From Promethearchaeota archaeon (GTDB lineage Archaea; Asgardarchaeota; Lokiarchaeia; Sigyniarchaeales; SOKP01): a DNA stretch of 55,556 bases. Location: assembly GCA_048938025.1 (NCBI GenBank), contig JBHLMP010000003.1, forward strand, positions 10,952-66,507. Direction: 5' to 3'. The notes beneath the pieces were generated by a model. The model was not told the DNA's origin, searched no databases, and saw only the letters and a program-made list of their open reading frames with translations. A program made the position numbers and the translations under genes. Below, in pieces: positions 712-33,938 of this stretch. Numbering within the stretch: position 1 is the stretch's first letter; the number at the start of each line of letters is the position of its first letter.

Positions 712-812
712 TGGCGCAGACAGAGGGATTCGAACCCTCGAGTGCAAAGCACACTGGCTTTATGGTATAAGCTTCTCCAAGCCAGCGCCGTACCAGGCTT
801 GGCTATGTCTGC
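712..812 (-). tRNA. tRNA-Ser(GGA) with 15-nt intron at 37/38 (760-774), CCA encoded
   Basis: Acceptor GCAGACA/TGTCTGC, G73, anticodon arm CTGGC-TTGGAG[intron]A-GCCAG, long variable arm GTGC/GCAC, T arm GAGGG-TTCGAAT-CCCTC. Confidence 0.93.
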
Positions 813-4047: not shown

Positions 4048-5136
4048 TTAACTTATTTCTTGAAATTCTATAATAAAATAATTTTCTTCTTTTAAAATGT
4101 CATATTTGCGATGAGAGAAGGATTGAATTAGTTCTAGATTAGTTTTTGTATGGTTTGTAATTTCAAGTACTTTTATTTTTGATGCCCCACTACAATAGGC
4201 CATTAATGGTATTAATTGGTCACTTAGAAAATTGTCAACAGGGATCTCATTTTTGATATATTTAAGAATTTCATTAGCAGCTATCGTTCCAAGTTTTTCA
4301 GAAGTAATTTGTTTTTCACCTAAAATTGTACCCGTGGATATAATGGCTCCTGTATCAGAATGTGCCCATAAAAAAAGCCCTACACCAGGACTATATGAAT
4401 TTACAAACTTATATTTTATGTTTGTTTCTAATTTTATACTTTTTCTAACTTGTTGTTCAATGGTTCTTTTTATTCTTTCATTTATATTACTTTTTTTCAA
4501 TTGATTAGTTAAAATGATTTCTCCATTAATATTTTCTAAATTCCCTAAATCTATTAAATTTATTGGCTTTATTTTGTTGGTTGGTGGATATATTACGCAT
4601 TTTACTTTAGCACCTCCCTTAGGATAAAATCCATGTTGATCTATATCAATATCAATTTTCAATCCAGAATTGTTAAAAATTTGATATGTCACTTCTTGAA
4701 GGTAGGTAAGACTTGGAGCCCATTTACCAAATGTACCTCCACCATTCAATATTAACTCAATTTTTTCTGGTTTATTAAGAGCTAAACATGATATTTGTAT
4801 TGGTTGAAGTAGTAATCCTAAACTTGCTGCTGTGTTAATATTAACTTGAATTTTATCTTTTATTTTTTTATTTGGAATTAAAGTTACTTTTTTCGTACCA
4901 ACATGACATTCAGATAAGGTACTACTTGTTAATTCTGATAAAGTTTTAAGACCTAACATATGTTGAGTTCTTAAGCCAGGTTTTGGTCTATTAGCACGAA
5001 TATTTTTAATTCTGATCGGTTGATTAAATAGAATAGAAAATCCTGCACCTAACCGGAGTATAGCACCTCCCCCTTCTCCCATCGCACCATTAATCTCTAA
5101 AAAATCTAAATTAGTCAACCAATTCACTGTTTTCAT
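4048..5136 (-). CDS. rtcA: RNA 3'-terminal phosphate cyclase
   Basis: GEGGGAILR, IRANRPKPGLRTQH, GFYPKGG, VD.FLSDQL, catalytic ITNHTKTN. Confidence 0.95.
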   Translation of the reverse strand: MKTVNWLTNLDFLEINGAMGEGGGAILRLGAGFSILFNQPIRIKNIRANRPKPGLRTQHMLGLKTLSELTSSTLSECHVGTKKVTLIPNKKIKDKIQVNINTAASLGLLLQPIQISCLALNKPEKIELILNGGGTFGKWAPSLTYLQEVTYQIFNNSGLKIDIDIDQHGFYPKGGAKVKCVIYPPTNKIKPINLIDLGNLENINGEIILTNQLKKSNINERIKRTIEQQVRKSIKLETNIKYKFVNSYSPGVGLFLWAHSDTGAIISTGTILGEKQITSEKLGTIAANEILKYIKNEIPVDNFLSDQLIPLMAYCSGASKIKVLEITNHTKTNLELIQSFSHRKYDILKEENYFIIEFQEIS

Positions 5137-6271
5137 ATAACATTTTTATTCTCTCAATCCCATTAAAATCTTCAATCAAATCAATAACTTCTTTAGGTAC
5201 TAAGTGCCTCCAGTTATTATTTTCTTCTTTTATTAATATTCTTATGTTGTTACCATTGAATTTTTTGTTAAATATTGTTATTTTTCTTCCTAATTTAAAA
5301 CCTTCATTCTGAAATAATTCTCGAACCCAATCGCTATTAGAAAAAACAACATTGAAGTCTCCAACTATAGAGACAACGTGATTAACCCACTTTTTTGCAT
5401 TAAAAATATCTGGAATCTCATATATATTATATCGTTTATTTACTATTTTCCTTTTCTTTAAGGTTGCTTTGATAAATTTTATTCTTTCTTCACTTGTGAA
5501 TGGATCATTTGGCAAATGAGATAACTGAGAGCTTCCTATTCCTATTTTTACTATATTATATAAATTAAATATTGTATTGAGCACATAAATGTGACCATGA
5601 TGTAATGGTTGAAATCTTCCTATAAATAATGCTACATTTTCTTTTTTATTCTTATTATCCAATCCTTGCTTAAAATGAGATATTATATCCATATTTAAGA
5701 TTTTTCTCCAGATTTTATGTGAATAATCGATGAGTTTCTCATTTTTTAGCAAAACTTCTAATTCTTCCCTCGTGTAAAATTGGCTTCCATCAGTTTCCAC
5801 CTCATTTGGATTAGGTTTTAATTTAACGTCATAATCAACTAATCCAATAAATATATAAGAGATCTCTTTTGTTAAATTATCTTTTTCTGTACTTAAGTCA
5901 AAAAATTTAACTTTTCTAATCTTACTTGATGGAATTCCAAATTCTTCTTCAAGTTCTCTCATTGCATTTTGCTTAACTTCTTTGAGATCTAAAGTTTTTG
6001 TCCAAATTACATGCCCAGAAGCAGAATCTGTATAATATTCAGGATAAGATTTCTTACTTTTACCACGTTTTTGTACAAGATAAAGAAGTTTATTATCGGA
6101 ACTTATTGAGACTATGAAAAATCTAACAATAAGATGTGTTACTTTTTGTCGATGCGCTTTTTTCCGTTCCATAGGAAAGACATATTTAGAAATTTGCCCT
6201 GATTGCAAATATTTTATATTCTTATCCTCAATGCAAGCTAAAAATTCTTTTTCCATAGACTTTTCCTTCAT
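5111..6271 (-). CDS. Nudix (IDI-like) domain fused to C-terminal NMN adenylyltransferase
   Basis: N-half QKRG..K..YP..SASGHV..AMRELEEEFG; C-half FIGRFQPLHHGH and NDPFTSEER. Confidence 0.85.
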   Translation of the reverse strand: MKEKSMEKEFLACIEDKNIKYLQSGQISKYVFPMERKKAHRQKVTHLIVRFFIVSISSDNKLLYLVQKRGKSKKSYPEYYTDSASGHVIWTKTLDLKEVKQNAMRELEEEFGIPSSKIRKVKFFDLSTEKDNLTKEISYIFIGLVDYDVKLKPNPNEVETDGSQFYTREELEVLLKNEKLIDYSHKIWRKILNMDIISHFKQGLDNKNKKENVALFIGRFQPLHHGHIYVLNTIFNLYNIVKIGIGSSQLSHLPNDPFTSEERIKFIKATLKKRKIVNKRYNIYEIPDIFNAKKWVNHVVSIVGDFNVVFSNSDWVRELFQNEGFKLGRKITIFNKKFNGNNIRILIKEENNNWRHLVPKEVIDLIEDFNGIERIKMLYENSELVD

Positions 6272-10290: not shown

Positions 10291-11655
10291 TTATTGTTTT
10301 ATTTGATTGTAAGCTTTTACAAATCTCTCAACAGCTAATTCGATATCTCTTGTAGTTGCACCAATGGCAGCATTCATAACAATATAAGGAGTCGTATAAT
10401 TTTCACAACATGTTCCAAATGCTGTTTCTTTTGGATTGTAGACTCTTGGACCAGTCACCCGCAAATTGTATAAAGCACCTCCAAGGTTATATAGTTGTTC
10501 TTCTTTTAAGTTTTTTAAAGATAATGCTACTGCTATTGGATTATAAATATCAAGAATTCTTTCATTTATTTTATCTGCTACTATCTTTAGTTTTTTTTCT
10601 AATATTTTACGATTCTGCTGCTGTTCTTCAATTAATTTTTGATATCTATTGATTCCTAATGAAAGAATTGAGATTAAAAAGTTAACAACTGGAGTGGCTG
10701 ATGCACGTCCAGCATAAGTTTGACTAATTTTAATTATCATTTCTTTGCTAGGTGATGCTATTATTGCACCCCCAACTGGAGTTAGAAAATTTTTGTCAGT
10801 TGATTGAATTATCGCATCTACTCTACCAGCATCTATAGCAGCTCTAATTATTTTCATCCATTCAGGGCTTTGAGCTCCATATGCATTTATAATAATATGT
10901 ACTAGGTCATTTTCTTGAGCAAATTTACTAATTTCTTTGATATCATCAGATTCTCTAGGAGGAAAAAAACTGGTGGTTGAAACAATAGCAAAGCAATCAA
11001 TATCTAAATTTTTTTTAATATCTTCAACAGGTATTCTCACAGCATCTCTAAAAATTTTACCTTTAACGATTTTTGCCCTAAAACCCATTAATTCAATTGA
11101 TTTTAATAATGATTTATGATCAATTTGTGGCAACAACACCTTTCTCTTATGAAATAGTGTAGAATCATCCCAATCAGGTCTTAATGCTCCTAAACATAAA
11201 GATAATGACATTCCAGTACATAAAGGCACTACAATTGCTTCATTTATATTTGGTAATCCAATATTTTTCAATAAATTTCGCGCTAAATAATTGGTAATTT
11301 CATACATTATTGATCCTCCAGGTGCTTTAGGTTGTGGAGCTGTTAAAAATCCACTTCTACCTACACCATGACAAAATCCAGCCGAAGTTTTCAAATGAAG
11401 TTTTGATGCAATTCTAGCCTCTCTTTCACCTACCCTAGCAGCGTTATCATCCTTGTCTGTATCCATATTTGAAAGTGTTTCAAGTAAGAATTCTATTTGT
11501 TCATCACTCCATGGTTTTTTTGGAACACTTTTCTGTTCAAATAAGATCTTTATTGGATTTAAGAAATTATTTAATACAACCTGTCCTCGATTCAGCATAT
11601 TTTGAGGAATAGATGAACTTTTAAAATATTTTATAATCTCGTGAAAATTTACCAT
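10291..11655 (-). CDS. spcS: O-phosphoseryl-tRNA(Sec) selenium transferase (SepSecS)
   Basis: MDTD..VGEREAR, HGVGRSG.L.APQPKAPG, QIDHKS, QSTDKNFLTPVGG (PLP Lys), YAGRAS; start reassigned to ATG 11655 because the longer ORF overlaps tRNA-Sec. Confidence 0.95.
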   Translation of the reverse strand: MVNFHEIIKYFKSSSIPQNMLNRGQVVLNNFLNPIKILFEQKSVPKKPWSDEQIEFLLETLSNMDTDKDDNAARVGEREARIASKLHLKTSAGFCHGVGRSGFLTAPQPKAPGGSIMYEITNYLARNLLKNIGLPNINEAIVVPLCTGMSLSLCLGALRPDWDDSTLFHKRKVLLPQIDHKSLLKSIELMGFRAKIVKGKIFRDAVRIPVEDIKKNLDIDCFAIVSTTSFFPPRESDDIKEISKFAQENDLVHIIINAYGAQSPEWMKIIRAAIDAGRVDAIIQSTDKNFLTPVGGAIIASPSKEMIIKISQTYAGRASATPVVNFLISILSLGINRYQKLIEEQQQNRKILEKKLKIVADKINERILDIYNPIAVALSLKNLKEEQLYNLGGALYNLRVTGPRVYNPKETAFGTCCENYTTPYIVMNAAIGATTRDIELAVERFVKAYNQIKQ

Positions 11656-11681: not shown

Positions 11682-11833
11682 TGGCGGCCCCCAGGGGGAT
11701 ATTCTTAAAAAGAGTAAATCTCTTTTCATATCGAACCCCTATCCCTCCGCAGGATAACTGGGTTTGAAGCCCAGCGTCAAAGACCACTTATCGTCGAGGA
11801 TCGGAATGATCATCAATTCGACCGCTAGGGGCC
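11682..11833 (-). tRNA. selC: tRNA-Sec(UCA), 9/4 fold, two introns (D arm 11788-11816; T loop 11700-11729)
   Basis: 9-bp acceptor GGCCCCTAG/CTGGGGGCC-G-CCA, 7-bp D stem with TGGT loop after splicing, GCTGGG-CTTCAAA-CCCAGT anticodon arm, long variable arm, 4-bp T stem; directly upstream of SepSecS. Confidence 0.93.
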
Positions 11834-11898: not shown

Positions 11899-12567
11899 TT
11901 ATTTGATTATTCGATCTTTTATATCTTCACAATTTATACGTCTACAGCCAGGGGTCATCAGCCTGATATTGTAAATATTATCTATGAAATTAACTATAAT
12001 ATGTGAAGTTGCACCGAAGACAACATATTTTTTTCCATTAGGAGCTCTATAATTAAATTTTCCAACACCGATAAGATCTCCTTTAAGCAGGTATGTTCTC
12101 TCTCTATAATTTTTTTTCTCCGCGAAAAAAGATATCGGGATTTTCACTATTTCCTCTACTTCTTCATCTTGTTTTATCATTGTTTGATCTTCATTAATAT
12201 AAGCAACAAATGCAGTAATTATAAAACCTTTTGGCGTTAAATGATCATCAATACAACCTAATAATTTTGGTTTTGATTTTGGAATTCCCAGCTCTTCTTC
12301 TAATTCTCGTAATGCGGTATCCAAAAATGTTTTATCTAACTTAGAGTCAAATTTTCCACCAGGAAAAGACATTTCTCCAGAATGCTTATCTCCTTCTCTC
12401 TTAGTACGCCTAATCATTACCAAGTTAAAAGGTTTATCTTGATAAGGAATTATTAAGAATGTAATAGCGGAATTTATAAAATGTTCATGGTGCATGGAAA
12501 GTCTATCTGAGGAATTGAAGTCTTTTAATTTGCTTTTGATTAAATTTTCATCAAAAATAAGATTCAA
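11899..12567 (-). CDS. Nudix CoA pyrophosphatase-like hydrolase
   Basis: HSGEMSFPGG, TALRELEEELG, VFGATS. Confidence 0.88.
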   Translation of the reverse strand: MNLIFDENLIKSKLKDFNSSDRLSMHHEHFINSAITFLIIPYQDKPFNLVMIRRTKREGDKHSGEMSFPGGKFDSKLDKTFLDTALRELEEELGIPKSKPKLLGCIDDHLTPKGFIITAFVAYINEDQTMIKQDEEVEEIVKIPISFFAEKKNYRERTYLLKGDLIGVGKFNYRAPNGKKYVVFGATSHIIVNFIDNIYNIRLMTPGCRRINCEDIKDRIIK

Positions 12568-12593: not shown

Positions 12594-13304
12594 TTAAAAT
12601 TCTTTATTAATGTGATTTCTATGTTTGATATATTCTTTGACATATTTCATTTTATCAATTTTAAATCTTTTTAATCCGAGTTCTGATAAATCAAATTCAT
12701 ATACTCTTTCGATGAAATTAGCAATCATATATGCGGTTGCGCCCCATACGGTATATTTATTTCCATTTTCTTTATCTACATAATTAAAATAAAAAACTGG
12801 GAACATATTTCCATTGATATCAACGGCTTGTTCTCGAAAGTTTGTTTTGTTTATAAAAAAATCAATAGGGATCTTAACAATTTTCTGAACTTCTCTTGGA
12901 TCTTTTATTAATTTCTGATTCTTATCAATAATTCCAATAAATGGTGTAATTATAAATTTGGTCATGGTAGGAAAGTCATCTAGACAACCAATAATTCTAA
13001 TATTTTCTCTAGGAACTCCAATTTCCTCTTCTGCTTCTCTTAAAGCAGTATCTTCTAAGGATTTGTCAAATTGAGATTCATATTTTCCACCTGGAAATGA
13101 CATTTCACCTTTATGTCTGGTCCCTTTATTTGTTCGATGAATTAGAATTAGATCGTATGGTTTATTTTTATAAGGTATAATGGAGAATAGAACTGCTGAA
13201 CTTGTAAAAAAATCATCATTTAAAGAGATTCTTAAAGATGATTTACATGGAATTAATTTATTTTTTACTAAGTTTTCATCAAAGGTTAAATCTAAATCAT
13301 CCAT
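12594..13304 (-). CDS. Nudix CoA pyrophosphatase-like hydrolase (tandem paralog)
   Basis: HKGEMSFPGG, TALREAEEEIG, VWGATA. Confidence 0.88.
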   Translation of the reverse strand: MDDLDLTFDENLVKNKLIPCKSSLRISLNDDFFTSSAVLFSIIPYKNKPYDLILIHRTNKGTRHKGEMSFPGGKYESQFDKSLEDTALREAEEEIGVPRENIRIIGCLDDFPTMTKFIITPFIGIIDKNQKLIKDPREVQKIVKIPIDFFINKTNFREQAVDINGNMFPVFYFNYVDKENGNKYTVWGATAYMIANFIERVYEFDLSELGLKRFKIDKMKYVKEYIKHRNHINKEF

Positions 13305-14931: not shown

Positions 14932-16350
14932 ATGGATATCGAAAAGAAAATCCCTATTCATATTGGATTATTTGGTCATATTGACTGTGGTAAAACAGCA
15001 ATAGCTAAAGTACTAAGTGAGATAATTTCTACTGCTGGTATTGATGCTCATCCGCAAAGTAAAGAAAGAGGAATTACAATTGATTTAGGCTTTACTAGTT
15101 TTATACTAGATAAATATTTGATTACTTTAGTAGATGGCCCTGGTCATGCTGATTTAATAAAAATTAGTGCCTCATCAGTAGAAATTATCGATTGCGCTCT
15201 AGTGGTTATTGATATAAATAAAGGTCCTCAAGTTCAAACTGGTGAGCATTTAATCATCATTCAATCGCTTAAAATTAAAAAAATTATTGTTTTACTTAAT
15301 AAAATTGATCTTTTTACTGGAAATGTTGTAGAAGAAGTTGAAAAAACCAGGAAGTTCTTTAGATCTACCTCATTTAGTTCAGATGTACCCATTTTTGCTG
15401 TATCTGCGAAAAATGAGATTGGTTTTAATGAATTAAAAGTAGGAATCCTAGAAATGATTAATTCATTAGAAATTAAAAGAGAAATCGGAGGAGATGTTAT
15501 TATTCCAATTGATCACCATTTTCCAATCAAAGGAATGGGTGCAATTTTAACAGGTACAATAATGAGAGGGATAATAAAATTGAATGATATTTTAGAAATT
15601 TTACCAATAAAATCTTCAGGAAGGGTTAAAAGCATTCAGATTTTTCATCAAAACGTTAATTCTGCAAAAGCTGGTGATCGTATCGGGATTAATATAAAAG
15701 GATTAGATTTTAGAAAAGTATTTAGAGGTTGTTATGCTACTAATAATCCAGAATTATTCGATTTTTGTGATACTATTGAGGTAACTGTAAATAGTAATGA
15801 ATTATTCAAACCTAAAACTGGATTTGGTACTCAAATCCACATCACAATTGGAATGGTAACTGTTGTTGGAAATATTTATCCCTTTTATGAAAGAGAAGGA
15901 AAAAGAATTCAAATTGCTATTTCAAATAATGAAGCAGAGTTTAAAGCAATAATAATACTAAAAGAAAGAATTTTAATACCAAAAGAAAGAACTATAATGC
16001 TTTTAAGTCGTTTGGATTTACCCCCAACTACTCTTAGGATAATGGGATCAGCTGAAATAATAAAAATACATACAGTTCCTCCTGTATTTTATAAATATAA
16101 AATTAAGAAAGGGTATATTAAGAATCCCGAACATCCTCAAGGAATTATATGTACTGGATTAGCACAAAGTGGATTTGGTGCGAAAAAGATTATTGGTAGA
16201 AAATTAGAATCCCCTTTCACACAAATTTTAAATACTTTTGGCACCAAAGGTGCTGTAATCGTGGGAATTGAAAATAAAAATTTGCCCATTAAGAAAGGAG
16301 AGCGAGTTCTACTAAAGGAGTTGAGAAGTTTTCAACTAAAAAACATTTAA
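14932..16350 (+). CDS. selB: Selenocysteine-specific elongation factor (archaeal/eukaryote type)
   Basis: GHIDCGKT, PQSKERGITIDLGF, DGPGHADLI, QTGEH, NKID, DHHFPIKG.G; C-terminal FGTKG domain IV; near tRNA-Sec. Confidence 0.93.
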   Translation: MDIEKKIPIHIGLFGHIDCGKTAIAKVLSEIISTAGIDAHPQSKERGITIDLGFTSFILDKYLITLVDGPGHADLIKISASSVEIIDCALVVIDINKGPQVQTGEHLIIIQSLKIKKIIVLLNKIDLFTGNVVEEVEKTRKFFRSTSFSSDVPIFAVSAKNEIGFNELKVGILEMINSLEIKREIGGDVIIPIDHHFPIKGMGAILTGTIMRGIIKLNDILEILPIKSSGRVKSIQIFHQNVNSAKAGDRIGINIKGLDFRKVFRGCYATNNPELFDFCDTIEVTVNSNELFKPKTGFGTQIHITIGMVTVVGNIYPFYEREGKRIQIAISNNEAEFKAIIILKERILIPKERTIMLLSRLDLPPTTLRIMGSAEIIKIHTVPPVFYKYKIKKGYIKNPEHPQGIICTGLAQSGFGAKKIIGRKLESPFTQILNTFGTKGAVIVGIENKNLPIKKGERVLLKELRSFQLKNI

Positions 16351-31350: not shown

Positions 31351-32016
31351 TTAATAATTATTTGGGTTGAACACTCTTGAAATGTCTTCCTCATTGAAAA
31401 TTCCACTCCATTGCTCTTTTAAAAAGACGAATTTTTCTTTACTTGGATTAATAACTGTATGAAATGTGTTTATAGGAATTTTAAATTTAGTACCACTTTT
31501 TACCTGATAATAGACCGTATTTCCATTTATGATAATTGGATTACCATCCAATATTTCCCATAACTCATTTCTATACTTATGTATTTGAATTGAAAGCCCA
31601 TATTCGGGTCGAATAAAAATTAAATTATGATCTAGATACGTAAATTTAAAACTGTACCACTTAGGAAGTGTGTTAATATATCCTTTAGGGATTCTATATT
31701 TTCTTTTAAAAAATTCAGCTTCAAAATATATTTTTTCTGAATCCTCATACTTATAAGGATCATAAATAACTTGATGATAAGAATTATCCCTACTATATGT
31801 GATCTCAATAGGATATTCTTCTTTATTTATGATCATATAGTGATTTTCTGGTTTTATAATTAAAATAGAACTCAAATTATTTTCAGTAATAAAAGATGAC
31901 CCATTAATAATGTACACTTTTTTAGTGTTGTTATTTTTAAAGGAGATTCTTAATTCTTGAGAACTATTTTTTCTCAATGATGTACTTCTTCCAGGAAAAA
32001 TTATTCTTTTTATCAC
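31351..32016 (-). CDS. Cupin-domain protein (mannose-6-phosphate isomerase type II-like C-terminus)
   Basis: LSIQIHKYRNELW, IPINTFHTVIN, EEDISR. Confidence 0.7.
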   Translation of the reverse strand: MIKRIIFPGRSTSLRKNSSQELRISFKNNNTKKVYIINGSSFITENNLSSILIIKPENHYMIINKEEYPIEITYSRDNSYHQVIYDPYKYEDSEKIYFEAEFFKRKYRIPKGYINTLPKWYSFKFTYLDHNLIFIRPEYGLSIQIHKYRNELWEILDGNPIIINGNTVYYQVKSGTKFKIPINTFHTVINPSKEKFVFLKEQWSGIFNEEDISRVFNPNNY

Positions 32017-32029
32017 ATTTATTCTCTTT

Positions 32030-32998
32030 TTATTTAAGATTCATTTTCAATTCTTTTATACTATCTTCAATTTCATTTAAATAGGGCATTGATTCTTGAG
32101 CTCCTTTTCTAGTAACAGCAATAGATGCTGCTACTGTTGCATATTTAACTGCTTTAACAATTGTTTCACCTTTACTCAATTTACTTGCTAAAACTCCAAT
32201 GAAACAATCTCCAGCTCCCACTGTATCTACTGCCTTAACTTTAGGCGCTGGTATTTCAATAATATCCTCTTTTTCTTTATTATAAATTATAGAACCTTTA
32301 TTACCAAGTGTAGTAATGATAAAATTTAGACCTAAATCGCAAATCTTTTTTGAAGCTTGAAGAATTTTTTGTTTTCCTTTATCAGATAGAACTCCTAATT
32401 CTAAAAGTGAACAGAGCCGAAACAATTCTCCTTCATTAGGGATAATTATATCTATATTCTCAAAAATATTAAGAGGGATAGGTTTTAATGGTGCAGGATT
32501 TAAAATCTTTATTACATCTCCTTCTGAAGCAATATTAAATATTTCATTGATGGTTTCAATTGGAATTTCCATTTGAACCACTAAAGAATTAGCATTCTTA
32601 ATTATATCTGCTTTTGATTTAATTTCCCCTGGAGATAGTTTGAGATTTGCTCCTGGAGCTACACTTATCATATTTTCTCCATTAGAATCAATCAATATGA
32701 ACGCTACACCGCTATGCTCTTGTGAATCTCTAAAAACATGTTCTGTATTAATGCCCTCTTCAGTTAATCGCGAAATCATTTGTTCACCAAATGGATCAAA
32801 TCCAATTTTTCCTATGAAAATTGTACTTGCCCCGGATCTAACGGAAGCAACTGACTGATTAGCACCCTTACCACCTAAAAATTGCCTAAATGTCCCTCCG
32901 GTAACGGTTTCACCAGGATGTGGAAATCGTTTAGAATAAATGTTTAAATCCATATTACTAGATCCAATTATAAGTACATAACCATTTTTTTTGGACAT
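32030..32998 (-). CDS. rbsK: Ribokinase (PfkB family)
   Basis: GSSNMDL, GGKGANQ, NPAP, PNEGE, VDTVGAGDCF. Confidence 0.92.
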   Translation of the reverse strand: MSKKNGYVLIIGSSNMDLNIYSKRFPHPGETVTGGTFRQFLGGKGANQSVASVRSGASTIFIGKIGFDPFGEQMISRLTEEGINTEHVFRDSQEHSGVAFILIDSNGENMISVAPGANLKLSPGEIKSKADIIKNANSLVVQMEIPIETINEIFNIASEGDVIKILNPAPLKPIPLNIFENIDIIIPNEGELFRLCSLLELGVLSDKGKQKILQASKKICDLGLNFIITTLGNKGSIIYNKEKEDIIEIPAPKVKAVDTVGAGDCFIGVLASKLSKGETIVKAVKYATVAASIAVTRKGAQESMPYLNEIEDSIKELKMNLK

Positions 32999-33222
32999 AG
33001 CATTTATACTATATTCAGATTCTATTAAGATTTTTATTATTTCTATATAATCTAATTATGGATCCATCATATTATTTTAGTTATGATCAAATAGTTAGGA
33101 TCGAATGGTTTTAATTAAATAAATTTTTAAAATATAATAATAAGCAAATTAATCTGCTTAAAATAATAAAGTTTAAAGCAATTAAATAAAAAATACAAAA
33201 CCATTTCCTAAAGGTTATTAAT

Positions 33223-33561
33223 ATGGCTAAAGATAAAGTGATTGGAGCTATTGTGATGATTATCGGGATTCTAATCGCTATCGTCTACACAATGGGTTCT
33301 ATCTTAGATCTTTTATTTACAACAGTTTGGGCGCCTTCCAGTGGTGAGTGGGATGATTGGACTCACCTTTTTCCTGGTACTAGAAATGAACTTGATTGGC
33401 TTGATTGGAGACTATTCGTTGTCGCTCCAATGTGGCTCCTAATTATGCTAATCGCAATTATCGCAATCTGGATTGGATATTCAATGCTTACAACCCCGGC
33501 GCCGGTCCCATTGGAGGAATTGGAAGAGGAATTGGCAGCAGAAGAAGAGAGCGAAGAATAA
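33223..33561 (+). CDS. Two-TM small membrane protein, DPM2-like archaeal family
   Basis: DKVIGA.. TM1, TM2 ending WIGYSMLTTPAP, acidic tail. Confidence 0.6.
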   Translation: MAKDKVIGAIVMIIGILIAIVYTMGSILDLLFTTVWAPSSGEWDDWTHLFPGTRNELDWLDWRLFVVAPMWLLIMLIAIIAIWIGYSMLTTPAPVPLEELEEELAAEEESEE

Positions 33562-33938
33562 AACATAACAAAATTTTATTTTTTTTTATTTTTCAAATTT
33601 AAATCTTTAAGATTTAATATTGTTTATTATTTATTTGAGAACAACTAAAGGAAAAAGGATTTAGAATAGGCAATAATCTCTTTTTGTAGATTATTATTAA
33701 TATCACCAACATCAATTCCTAGAATTGATTCACTATACTTATATCTCCAGAGTTCTCGTACTTTCAAGATTGTTTTACATTTAAGTATTAAAATGGTTGT
33801 ATTAAGTTCAAAAAATAATAATTAATTGATAATTGTTCTAAATAACAACGAAATTTAAATTTTTTATATTATTATCAAATATAAAATTGTTATAAATCAA
33901 TTTAAAATTAGAAAAAATAAGAAAGGAGTTATAATTTT

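Follow-up and report, generated by a model that had tools for sequence, protein, structure and literature searches.

The window, by which we mean the entire 55,556-nt stretch of a Promethearchaeota archaeon genome analyzed here, contains a selC gene on the reverse strand (positions 11,682–11,833). The gene specifies a 152-nt precursor of tRNA-Sec with the anticodon UCA and an encoded 3′ CCA, and its three exons are separated by two introns. Exon 1 (17 nt; 11,817–11,833, reverse strand) comprises the 9-nt 5′ acceptor strand, two linker nucleotides and six nucleotides of the D stem 5′ strand, and it ends at the same junction as in intronless orthologues. It is followed by a 29-nt D-arm intron with a GUCG/CGAU central helix (11,788–11,816, reverse strand; precursor nt 18–46), which is placed at the boundary of nt 6 and 7 of the D stem 5′ strand, at about 15/16 in standard numbering. 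Exon 2 (58 nt; 11,730–11,787, reverse strand) begins with the last D-stem base and extends over the D loop, the D stem 3′ strand, the anticodon arm, the variable arm and the T stem 5′ strand to nt 54–59 of the T loop; the anticodon UCA (11,765–11,767, reverse strand) reads UGA. A 30-nt T-loop intron at position 59/60 (11,700–11,729, reverse strand; precursor nt 105–134) separates exon 2 from exon 3 (18 nt; 11,682–11,699, reverse strand), which contributes nt 60 of the T loop, the T stem 3′ strand, the 3′ acceptor strand, the discriminator G and CCA.

Genes of Sec synthesis and decoding flank selC. The gene for SepSecS, the O-phosphoseryl-tRNA(Sec) selenium transferase (10,291–11,655, reverse strand; Pfam PF05889, E 3e-115), has its ATG 26 nt downstream of the selC CCA on the same strand, and SepSecS is found downstream of selC on the same contig and strand wherever coordinates were compared across the genus. 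The gene for archaeal SelB/EFsec (aSelB; 14,932–16,350, forward strand; Pfam GTP_EFTU, GTP_EFTU_D2, and aSelB_III) is divergent from selC and lies 3.1 kb upstream of its 5′ end. Three NUDIX-domain genes are located near the Sec locus (11,899–12,567, 12,594–13,304, and 5,111–6,271, all on the reverse strand), one of which is a fusion with a cytidylyltransferase-like domain. A gene for RtcA, the RNA 3′-terminal phosphate cyclase (4,048–5,136, reverse strand; Pfam RTC and RTC_insert), is encoded about 5.2 kb downstream of SepSecS on the same strand, and a tie of RtcA to tRNA splicing or repair is possible. The DNA upstream of selC is so rich in A and T that a TATA box call there would carry no meaning.

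Removal of both inserts in silico yields a 93-nt RNA, CCA included, that adopts the 9/4 cloverleaf of archaeal tRNA-Sec when it is folded with no constraints imposed (−48.2 kcal/mol). In this product, all nine acceptor pairs are formed and position 73 is a G, the 4-bp T stem GGGG/CCCC closes the loop UUCGAUU, the anticodon sits in a 7-nt loop (CUUCAAA) on a stem of 6 bp, one of them G-U, and the variable arm has a 6-bp stem. The D stem of 7 bp, with its 4-nt loop UGGU, forms only once the D-arm insert has been taken out. ARAGORN reports the spliced product as tRNA-SeC(tca) and makes no call on the precursor. The 152-nt precursor itself adopts a more stable fold than each of 200 shuffled sequences (z = −3.2), and in its minimum-energy fold the GUCG/CGAU helix is already formed, as are the acceptor and T stems, the arms of the anticodon and the variable region, and the 9 bp within the T insert. 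No other UCA-containing candidate for a tRNA-Sec of the 9/4 type was detected in the 96.7%-complete assembly; two genomic matches to the Rfam tRNA-Sec model RF01852 that score higher than selC (37.9 and 36.7 bits) are an intron-containing tRNA-His and a tRNA-Gly. We therefore consider it very probable, on the basis of sequence, that selC is the single functional tRNA-Sec gene of this genome and is expressed as a 152-nt precursor with two archaeal BHB introns. An earlier note on this DNA, which gave no strand, had already read the locus as a tRNA-Sec gene with two non-canonical introns, which agrees with the 9/4 fold, the ARAGORN call and the existence of intronless orthologues that share the junction sequence.

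These orthologues provide natural controls. A selC gene was matched in 53 of the 54 genomes of the window's genus, the unmatched genome being 62% complete. The gene is an uninterrupted 93-nt sequence in 31 of the 53 genomes, carries only the D-arm insert in seven and only the T-loop insert in one, and contains both inserts in 13, among them the window's genome; in the one ambiguous case, the gene is split across two contig ends. Because intronless, D-only, T-only and two-intron selC genes coexist within one genus, the splice junctions are fixed. The middle exon is 95–98% identical in all 24 same-genus genomes of the first draw. The spliced product of the window's gene matches an intronless orthologue at 85 of 93 positions, and all eight differences fall into four compensatory pairs (6:84, 8:82, 9:81, and 16:25). 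Pair 16:25 spans the D-arm junction and covaries with the intronless orthologue, and only a single junction register restores the orthologue's sequence. The earlier note had proposed a comparison of selC across Asgard genomes; within the genus, such a comparison shows D-arm and T-loop introns next to intronless orthologues with the same junction sequence.

In archaeal introns of this type, the rule is that the four exon nucleotides directly preceding the 5′ bulge are paired with the four intron nucleotides directly preceding the 3′ bulge, and that cleavage takes place after the second bulge base (PMC4090602, as given in its available text). The geometry of the selC inserts follows this rule, in relaxed form for the window's D-arm insert. 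In the T-loop motif, the 4-bp T stem serves as the outer helix, AUA and UAU form the bulges, the inner stem is 9 bp long and the central helix UUCG/AGAA consists of three pairs and one G-A non-pair. The bulges, the 9-bp inner stem and the G-A mismatch had been described in the earlier note for the 30-nt insert at 59/60, as had the loop UUCGAUU that its removal leaves, and all of them are present. Most relatives have a perfect central helix (UUCG/CGAA, four of four pairs), and the G-A form is common to the window's clade and a clade of another genus. T-loop introns in the window's genus are all exactly 30 nt long. Across 11 distinct sequences, 92% of the cells of the T-loop motif are paired, compared to 47–60% in slid controls; both sides have changed in 9 of 17 pairs, and the observed covariation score was reached by none of 500 shuffles.

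The D-arm motif of the window has a fully paired central helix (4/4), a 3-nt 3′ bulge (AAG) and a 2-bp outer helix. The central helix is paired in all 15 distinct D-arm sequences, including one exon/intron double change from C-G to U-A, and 90.7% of the cells of the motif are paired in this set, compared to 23–48% in slid controls. Relatives with D-arm introns of 30–34 nt have a strict 3-nt 5′ bulge (GAA or GAU). In the window's four-genome clade, the third 5′ bulge base and a 4-nt internal loop have been lost from the motif, and therefore in the best register a bulge of only 2 nt (AA) precedes 4+4 inner pairs, a register that is also favored by the three closest relatives. The earlier description of the 29-nt insert holds for the GUCG/CGAU helix, the triplets AAU and AAG and the restored 7-bp D stem; its strict 3-nt 5′ bulge, however, leaves only one contiguous inner pair. 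The window's D-arm motif fits the relaxed BHB motifs whose acceptance by lenient two-subunit endonucleases has been reported (PMC4090602; PMC5829648; both as far as their available text goes). With a 2-nt 5′ bulge in one motif and a G-A in the central helix of the other, the selC locus would provide a natural relaxed substrate for Asgard EndA.

The insert motifs are beyond chance. When junction pairs were drawn at random within the window, the strict BHB test (central pairs 4/4, at least three inner and at least two outer pairs) was passed by 103 of 400,000 pairs, the D-insert pattern occurred in 40 of 400,000 and the T-insert pattern in none of 400,000. A blastn-short search for copies of the D intron elsewhere in the genome returned, among the matches listed, only the locus itself and matches of 11–16 nt with E values of at least 0.25. 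The D intron was also considered as a C/D-box guide RNA, with an Rfam match to snoZ103 (16.2 bits, E 1.9) and the hexamer UGAUGA present; this reading was rejected because the closest relatives have not retained the hexamer, 29 nt are too short and a CUGA box is absent.

The same data bear on the question of whether the inserts could be kept in the mature tRNA as expansions of the D arm and the T loop. The departure of the window's D-arm motif from a strict BHB would be in line with retention. Against this, the BHB geometry around both inserts is conserved and shows covariation, the cut sites are at the places expected from the rule, and orthologues that lack the inserts do so exactly to the nucleotide. 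Moreover, the central helices tie up nucleotides of the D stem and the T loop that are needed for the mature fold, and the insert sequences drift freely, whereas the exons remain 95–98% identical. Retention of the inserts is thus very unlikely, and excision of both as introns is the reading that we follow below.

Detection of the gene by common tools is compromised. ARAGORN with default settings finds no tRNA in the window, and at the gathering score Rfam leaves selC unmatched, the sole match in the window being another tRNA at 715–812. In E-value mode, RF01852 matches positions 11,686–11,802 with 34.6 bits, short of the 47 bits of the gathering score, and the alignment of the genomic selC displays a 31-nt T-loop insertion and a 5′ half misaligned into the D-arm insert. 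Intronless orthologues score 51–62 bits with the same model, and all five that were tested exceed the gathering score of 47. For four further intron-bearing selC genes, at a cut-off of E 0.001 or better, two matched with 37.6 and 37.9 bits and the other two gave no match, so that all five intron-bearing genes tested, the window's included, are below the Rfam gathering score or unmatched. The expectation in the earlier note that standard finders would miss the gene is borne out by ARAGORN and by Rfam at its gathering score. Calls of the selenocysteine trait depend on the detection of tRNA-Sec. At least one intron is present in 56 of the 112 selC genes of the window's family and intron-bearing genes remain sub-threshold or unmatched; therefore, surveys can score Asgard genomes that use Sec as lacking the tRNA.

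The score below the Rfam gathering score, the one non-pair in the helix of the T intron and the shortened 5′ bulge of the D intron might also be taken as signs of decay, that is, of a pseudogene whose tRNA the organism no longer uses. Decay is difficult to reconcile with the differences from the intronless orthologue, all eight of which are compensatory and lie in stems, or with the retention of the same allele type in the four genomes of the window's clade. Furthermore, the gene is the sole Sec candidate in a 96.7%-complete assembly, an in-frame TGA is present in each of the two selD genes, and no damage is seen in SepSecS, aSelB, RtcB or EndA, all of which are intact. A pseudogene is accordingly highly improbable, and we continue to regard selC as a functional gene with two introns.

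The distribution of the introns was followed through the class with a 30-nt pattern spanning the stretch from the D loop to the anticodon, which matched 126 of 161 genomes (reversed control: 0) and is blind to selC genes that are interrupted or diverged within this stretch. Most genes were classified by a script that required at least eight of nine acceptor pairs and at least five of six D-stem pairs, and seven rows at contig ends were judged by eye. Among the 112 selC genes of the window's family, 35 have both introns (in 7 of 13 genera), 15 only the D intron, four only the T intron and 56 none, and two are ambiguous. The 14 selC genes of three other families include none with both introns or only the D intron, one with only the T intron, 13 without introns and no ambiguous case. 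A match to the T intron in L029 was discarded as a spurious AT-rich match. The D-arm intron is certain in 50 of the 112 genes of the window's family, and the window's copy is homologous to introns of 29–34 nt at the same site in relatives. The 3′ end and the stem core of the D-arm introns are conserved across genera, so that this intron is old within the family. That the inserts are artefacts introduced when the metagenome-assembled genome was assembled or binned is hardly conceivable: the draft consists of 88 contigs, its contamination is 5.1% and selC is split at contig ends in several relatives (G046, G088, and G159), but 35 genomes from seven genera, each assembled separately, contain two-intron selC genes whose introns are homologous and occupy the same sites, the divergence of the intron sequences tracks the pairing of the motifs, and the window's selC lies within a 55-kb stretch with conserved neighbors.

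Several further features of selC were noted in the relatives. Some genomes have two copies of the gene, for instance the single-contig genome G006 with two D-intron copies (L014 and L038) about 370 kb apart. G099 contains a two-intron and an intronless selC on different contigs (L166 and L216), which could reflect contamination. Nearly all selC genes of the window's family that were read encode the 3′ CCA, which is absent from a few genes of another family (e.g., L144 and L146); archaeal tRNA-Sec genes are said not to encode CCA in a 2022 review (PMC9499178). In the selC gene L155 (G085), the anticodon loop reads CUUCAGA, with a G in place of A at position 37.

Not all D-arm introns occupy the same register. 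A 32-nt D-arm intron with a central helix of GGUU/AACC (or AACU, GACU) is present in five genomes of the genus (G006, G009, G014, G016, and G052). It cuts one nucleotide upstream of the other D-arm introns, its BHB is well formed and the mature sequence is unchanged. All D-arm introns examined outside the window's genus use the first register.

On a quick maximum-likelihood tree of SepSecS (53 rows; 50 inner branches, of which 18 are starred and 15 weak), at least 10 changes are needed for the D intron and at least seven for the T intron, counts in which related genomes are not independent and gain is indistinguishable from loss. The sister (99) of the window's four-genome two-intron clade (support 99) is an intronless genome, and G045, with both introns, clusters with G005 (D only) and two intronless genomes at support values of 97 to 99. 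Such a distribution is compatible with introns having been lost or gained repeatedly, or with an exchange of selC alleles by recombination. G050 (L075, both introns) is sister to G051 (L084, T only) with a support of 96 and near-identical SepSecS. The selC alleles of the two genomes differ in D-stem bases, in the presence of the D intron and in the sequence of the T intron, and the T intron of G051 is one base away from that of G045. The contrast between G050 and G051 suggests recombination within or beside selC. We tentatively propose, as one possibility that is still some way from being the probable one, that selC is a site of live intron turnover, at which introns are removed and reintroduced via allele recombination and slide by one nucleotide, and that vertical inheritance alone does not account for their distribution. 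With four intron states in one genus and matched alleles of an essential single-copy tRNA, selC offers a compact test bed for the gain, loss and movement of introns.

Components required for splicing and for Sec synthesis are encoded in the window's genome. Two EndA paralogues of about 200 aa, encoded on contigs C66 and C33, are above the Pfam cut-off, and RtcB is found with 566 bits. One EndA is closest to the PDB chains 3p1z_B, 3ajv_B, 2cv8, and 2zyz_B and has a His aligned with their active-site His, while the second has a Ser at the position where the active-site His aligns. We take these PDB entries to be crenarchaeal enzymes, some of them heterotetramers. The catalytic triad of EndA is Tyr-His-Lys, and the assignment of roles to the two subunits is based on the one aligned residue and on this triad as generally known. 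A PSTK-like gene is present and scores 139 bits, under the NCBIfam cut-off of 290.5. Two adjacent genes for selenophosphate synthetase (selD) are located on contig C35 of the window's genome G000 (31,639–32,436 and 32,973–33,734; L037 and L036), each with one in-frame TGA, and are likely Sec-containing paralogues.

We infer cleavage, the subunit architecture of EndA and all steps at the RNA level from the gene, its junctions and motifs and the presence of the enzymes. EndA, probably a two-subunit (αβ)2 enzyme of lenient specificity, would cut in the bulges of each of the two selC BHB motifs, after precursor nt 17, 46, 104 and 134. Cutting would free exons of 17, 58, and 18 nt, which would be held together by the 9-bp acceptor stem and the D and T stems. 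RtcB would then ligate the exons to the 93-nt tRNA with the 9/4 fold, the 7-bp D stem, the anticodon UCA, G73 and the encoded CCA. Finally, the spliced tRNA would be serylated; PSTK would phosphorylate it, SepSecS, encoded next to selC, would convert it, and aSelB, encoded nearby, would bring it to UGA codons.

Interrupted tRNA genes are presumably not confined to selC in this organism. The tRNA gene at 715–812 (reverse strand; Rfam tRNA, 48 bits) is missed by ARAGORN with default settings and is reported in intron mode as tRNA-Ser(GGA) with a 15-nt intron (C48:11,663–11,763). In the whole genome (G000; 3.5 Mb, 96.7% complete), ARAGORN detects 14 uninterrupted tRNA genes, and its anticodon-loop intron mode gives 32 calls, some of them doubtful. 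The low number of uninterrupted genes fits an intron-rich tRNA set, and most tRNA genes of G000 are probably interrupted at non-canonical sites.

An intron in tRNA-Sec has been described for Lokiarchaeota, in which the T loop contains a 31-nt intron (Mariotti et al., 2016, PMC4989117; Santesmasses et al., 2017, PMC5330540). The earlier note had mentioned such a T-arm intron as reported, correctly according to the available text of PMC4989117. As presented in the available parts of these papers, the lokiarchaeal tRNA-Sec and the window's selC have in common the 9/4 fold, the 7-bp D stem with a 4-nt loop, UCA, G73, a T-loop intron of about 30 nt and an EFsec gene on the opposite strand at a distance of a few kb. 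In contrast to the published gene as described there, the window's selC has a further intron, which interrupts the D stem in its 5′ strand. Furthermore, SepSecS lies directly downstream of selC in the window, whereas the lokiarchaeal machinery genes of 2016 were on separate contigs, EFsec being excepted (PMC4989117, available text). The T-arm intron is given as the only archaeal tRNA-Sec case in a 2022 review (PMC9499178), and "unusual insertions and deletions," not termed introns, have been reported for some tRNA-Sec genes of Lokiarchaeia (Sun et al., 2021, PMC9723677). A search of the full-text literature retrieved no published description of a D-arm intron or of two introns in tRNA-Sec; the supplements of PMC11291895 and 10.64898/2026.10.13.758758 may hold one. 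The suggestion in the earlier note that the D-arm intron may be new is thus tenable with respect to published descriptions, but in genomes the intron is common (50 of the 112 selC genes of the family).

Genes with several introns are familiar from the tRNAs of Crenarchaeota, an example being tRNA-Pro(UGG) of Pyrobaculum islandicum with introns at 25/26, 37/38, and 56/57 (Yoshihisa, 2014, PMC4090602, available text). Like the window's selC, each of these genes contains more than one BHB or relaxed-BHB intron outside the canonical site, and the association with a lenient two-subunit EndA in Crenarchaeota likewise matches the window's genome (PMC4090602, available text). Position 59/60 is a listed intron site, whereas the available text of the same source does not name the D-stem site. 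The window's case differs in its Asgard host and in the tRNA affected, tRNA-Sec. Within the Asgard archaea, multi-intron tRNAs and overlooked D-arm introns have been reported for other classes, again as far as the available text goes (PMC11291895; Goswami et al., 2026 preprint, 10.64898/2026.10.13.758758), along with repeated intron gains and two EndA paralogues in most genomes. Both studies center on Atabeyarchaeia, Freyarchaeia, and Jordiarchaeia, and in their available text Sec tRNAs appear only in a methods sentence. The tRNA-Sec of Daphnia pulex also contains an intron, but it is eukaryotic and has a single anticodon-loop intron at the canonical site (PMC5330540, available text).

Taken together, the two-intron selC is real and, as judged from the gene and its relatives, almost certainly functional. 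It is common in its family and thus not a surprise, and with both introns present in 35 of the 112 selC genes of the family it constitutes a modest extension of known biology, leaving the understanding of Sec decoding and of tRNA splicing unchanged. Its value lies in the annotation of the Sec trait and in a compact system for intron turnover and relaxed-motif splicing. Multi-intron archaeal tRNA genes were already known, and the two-intron selC extends the published one-intron tRNA-Sec.
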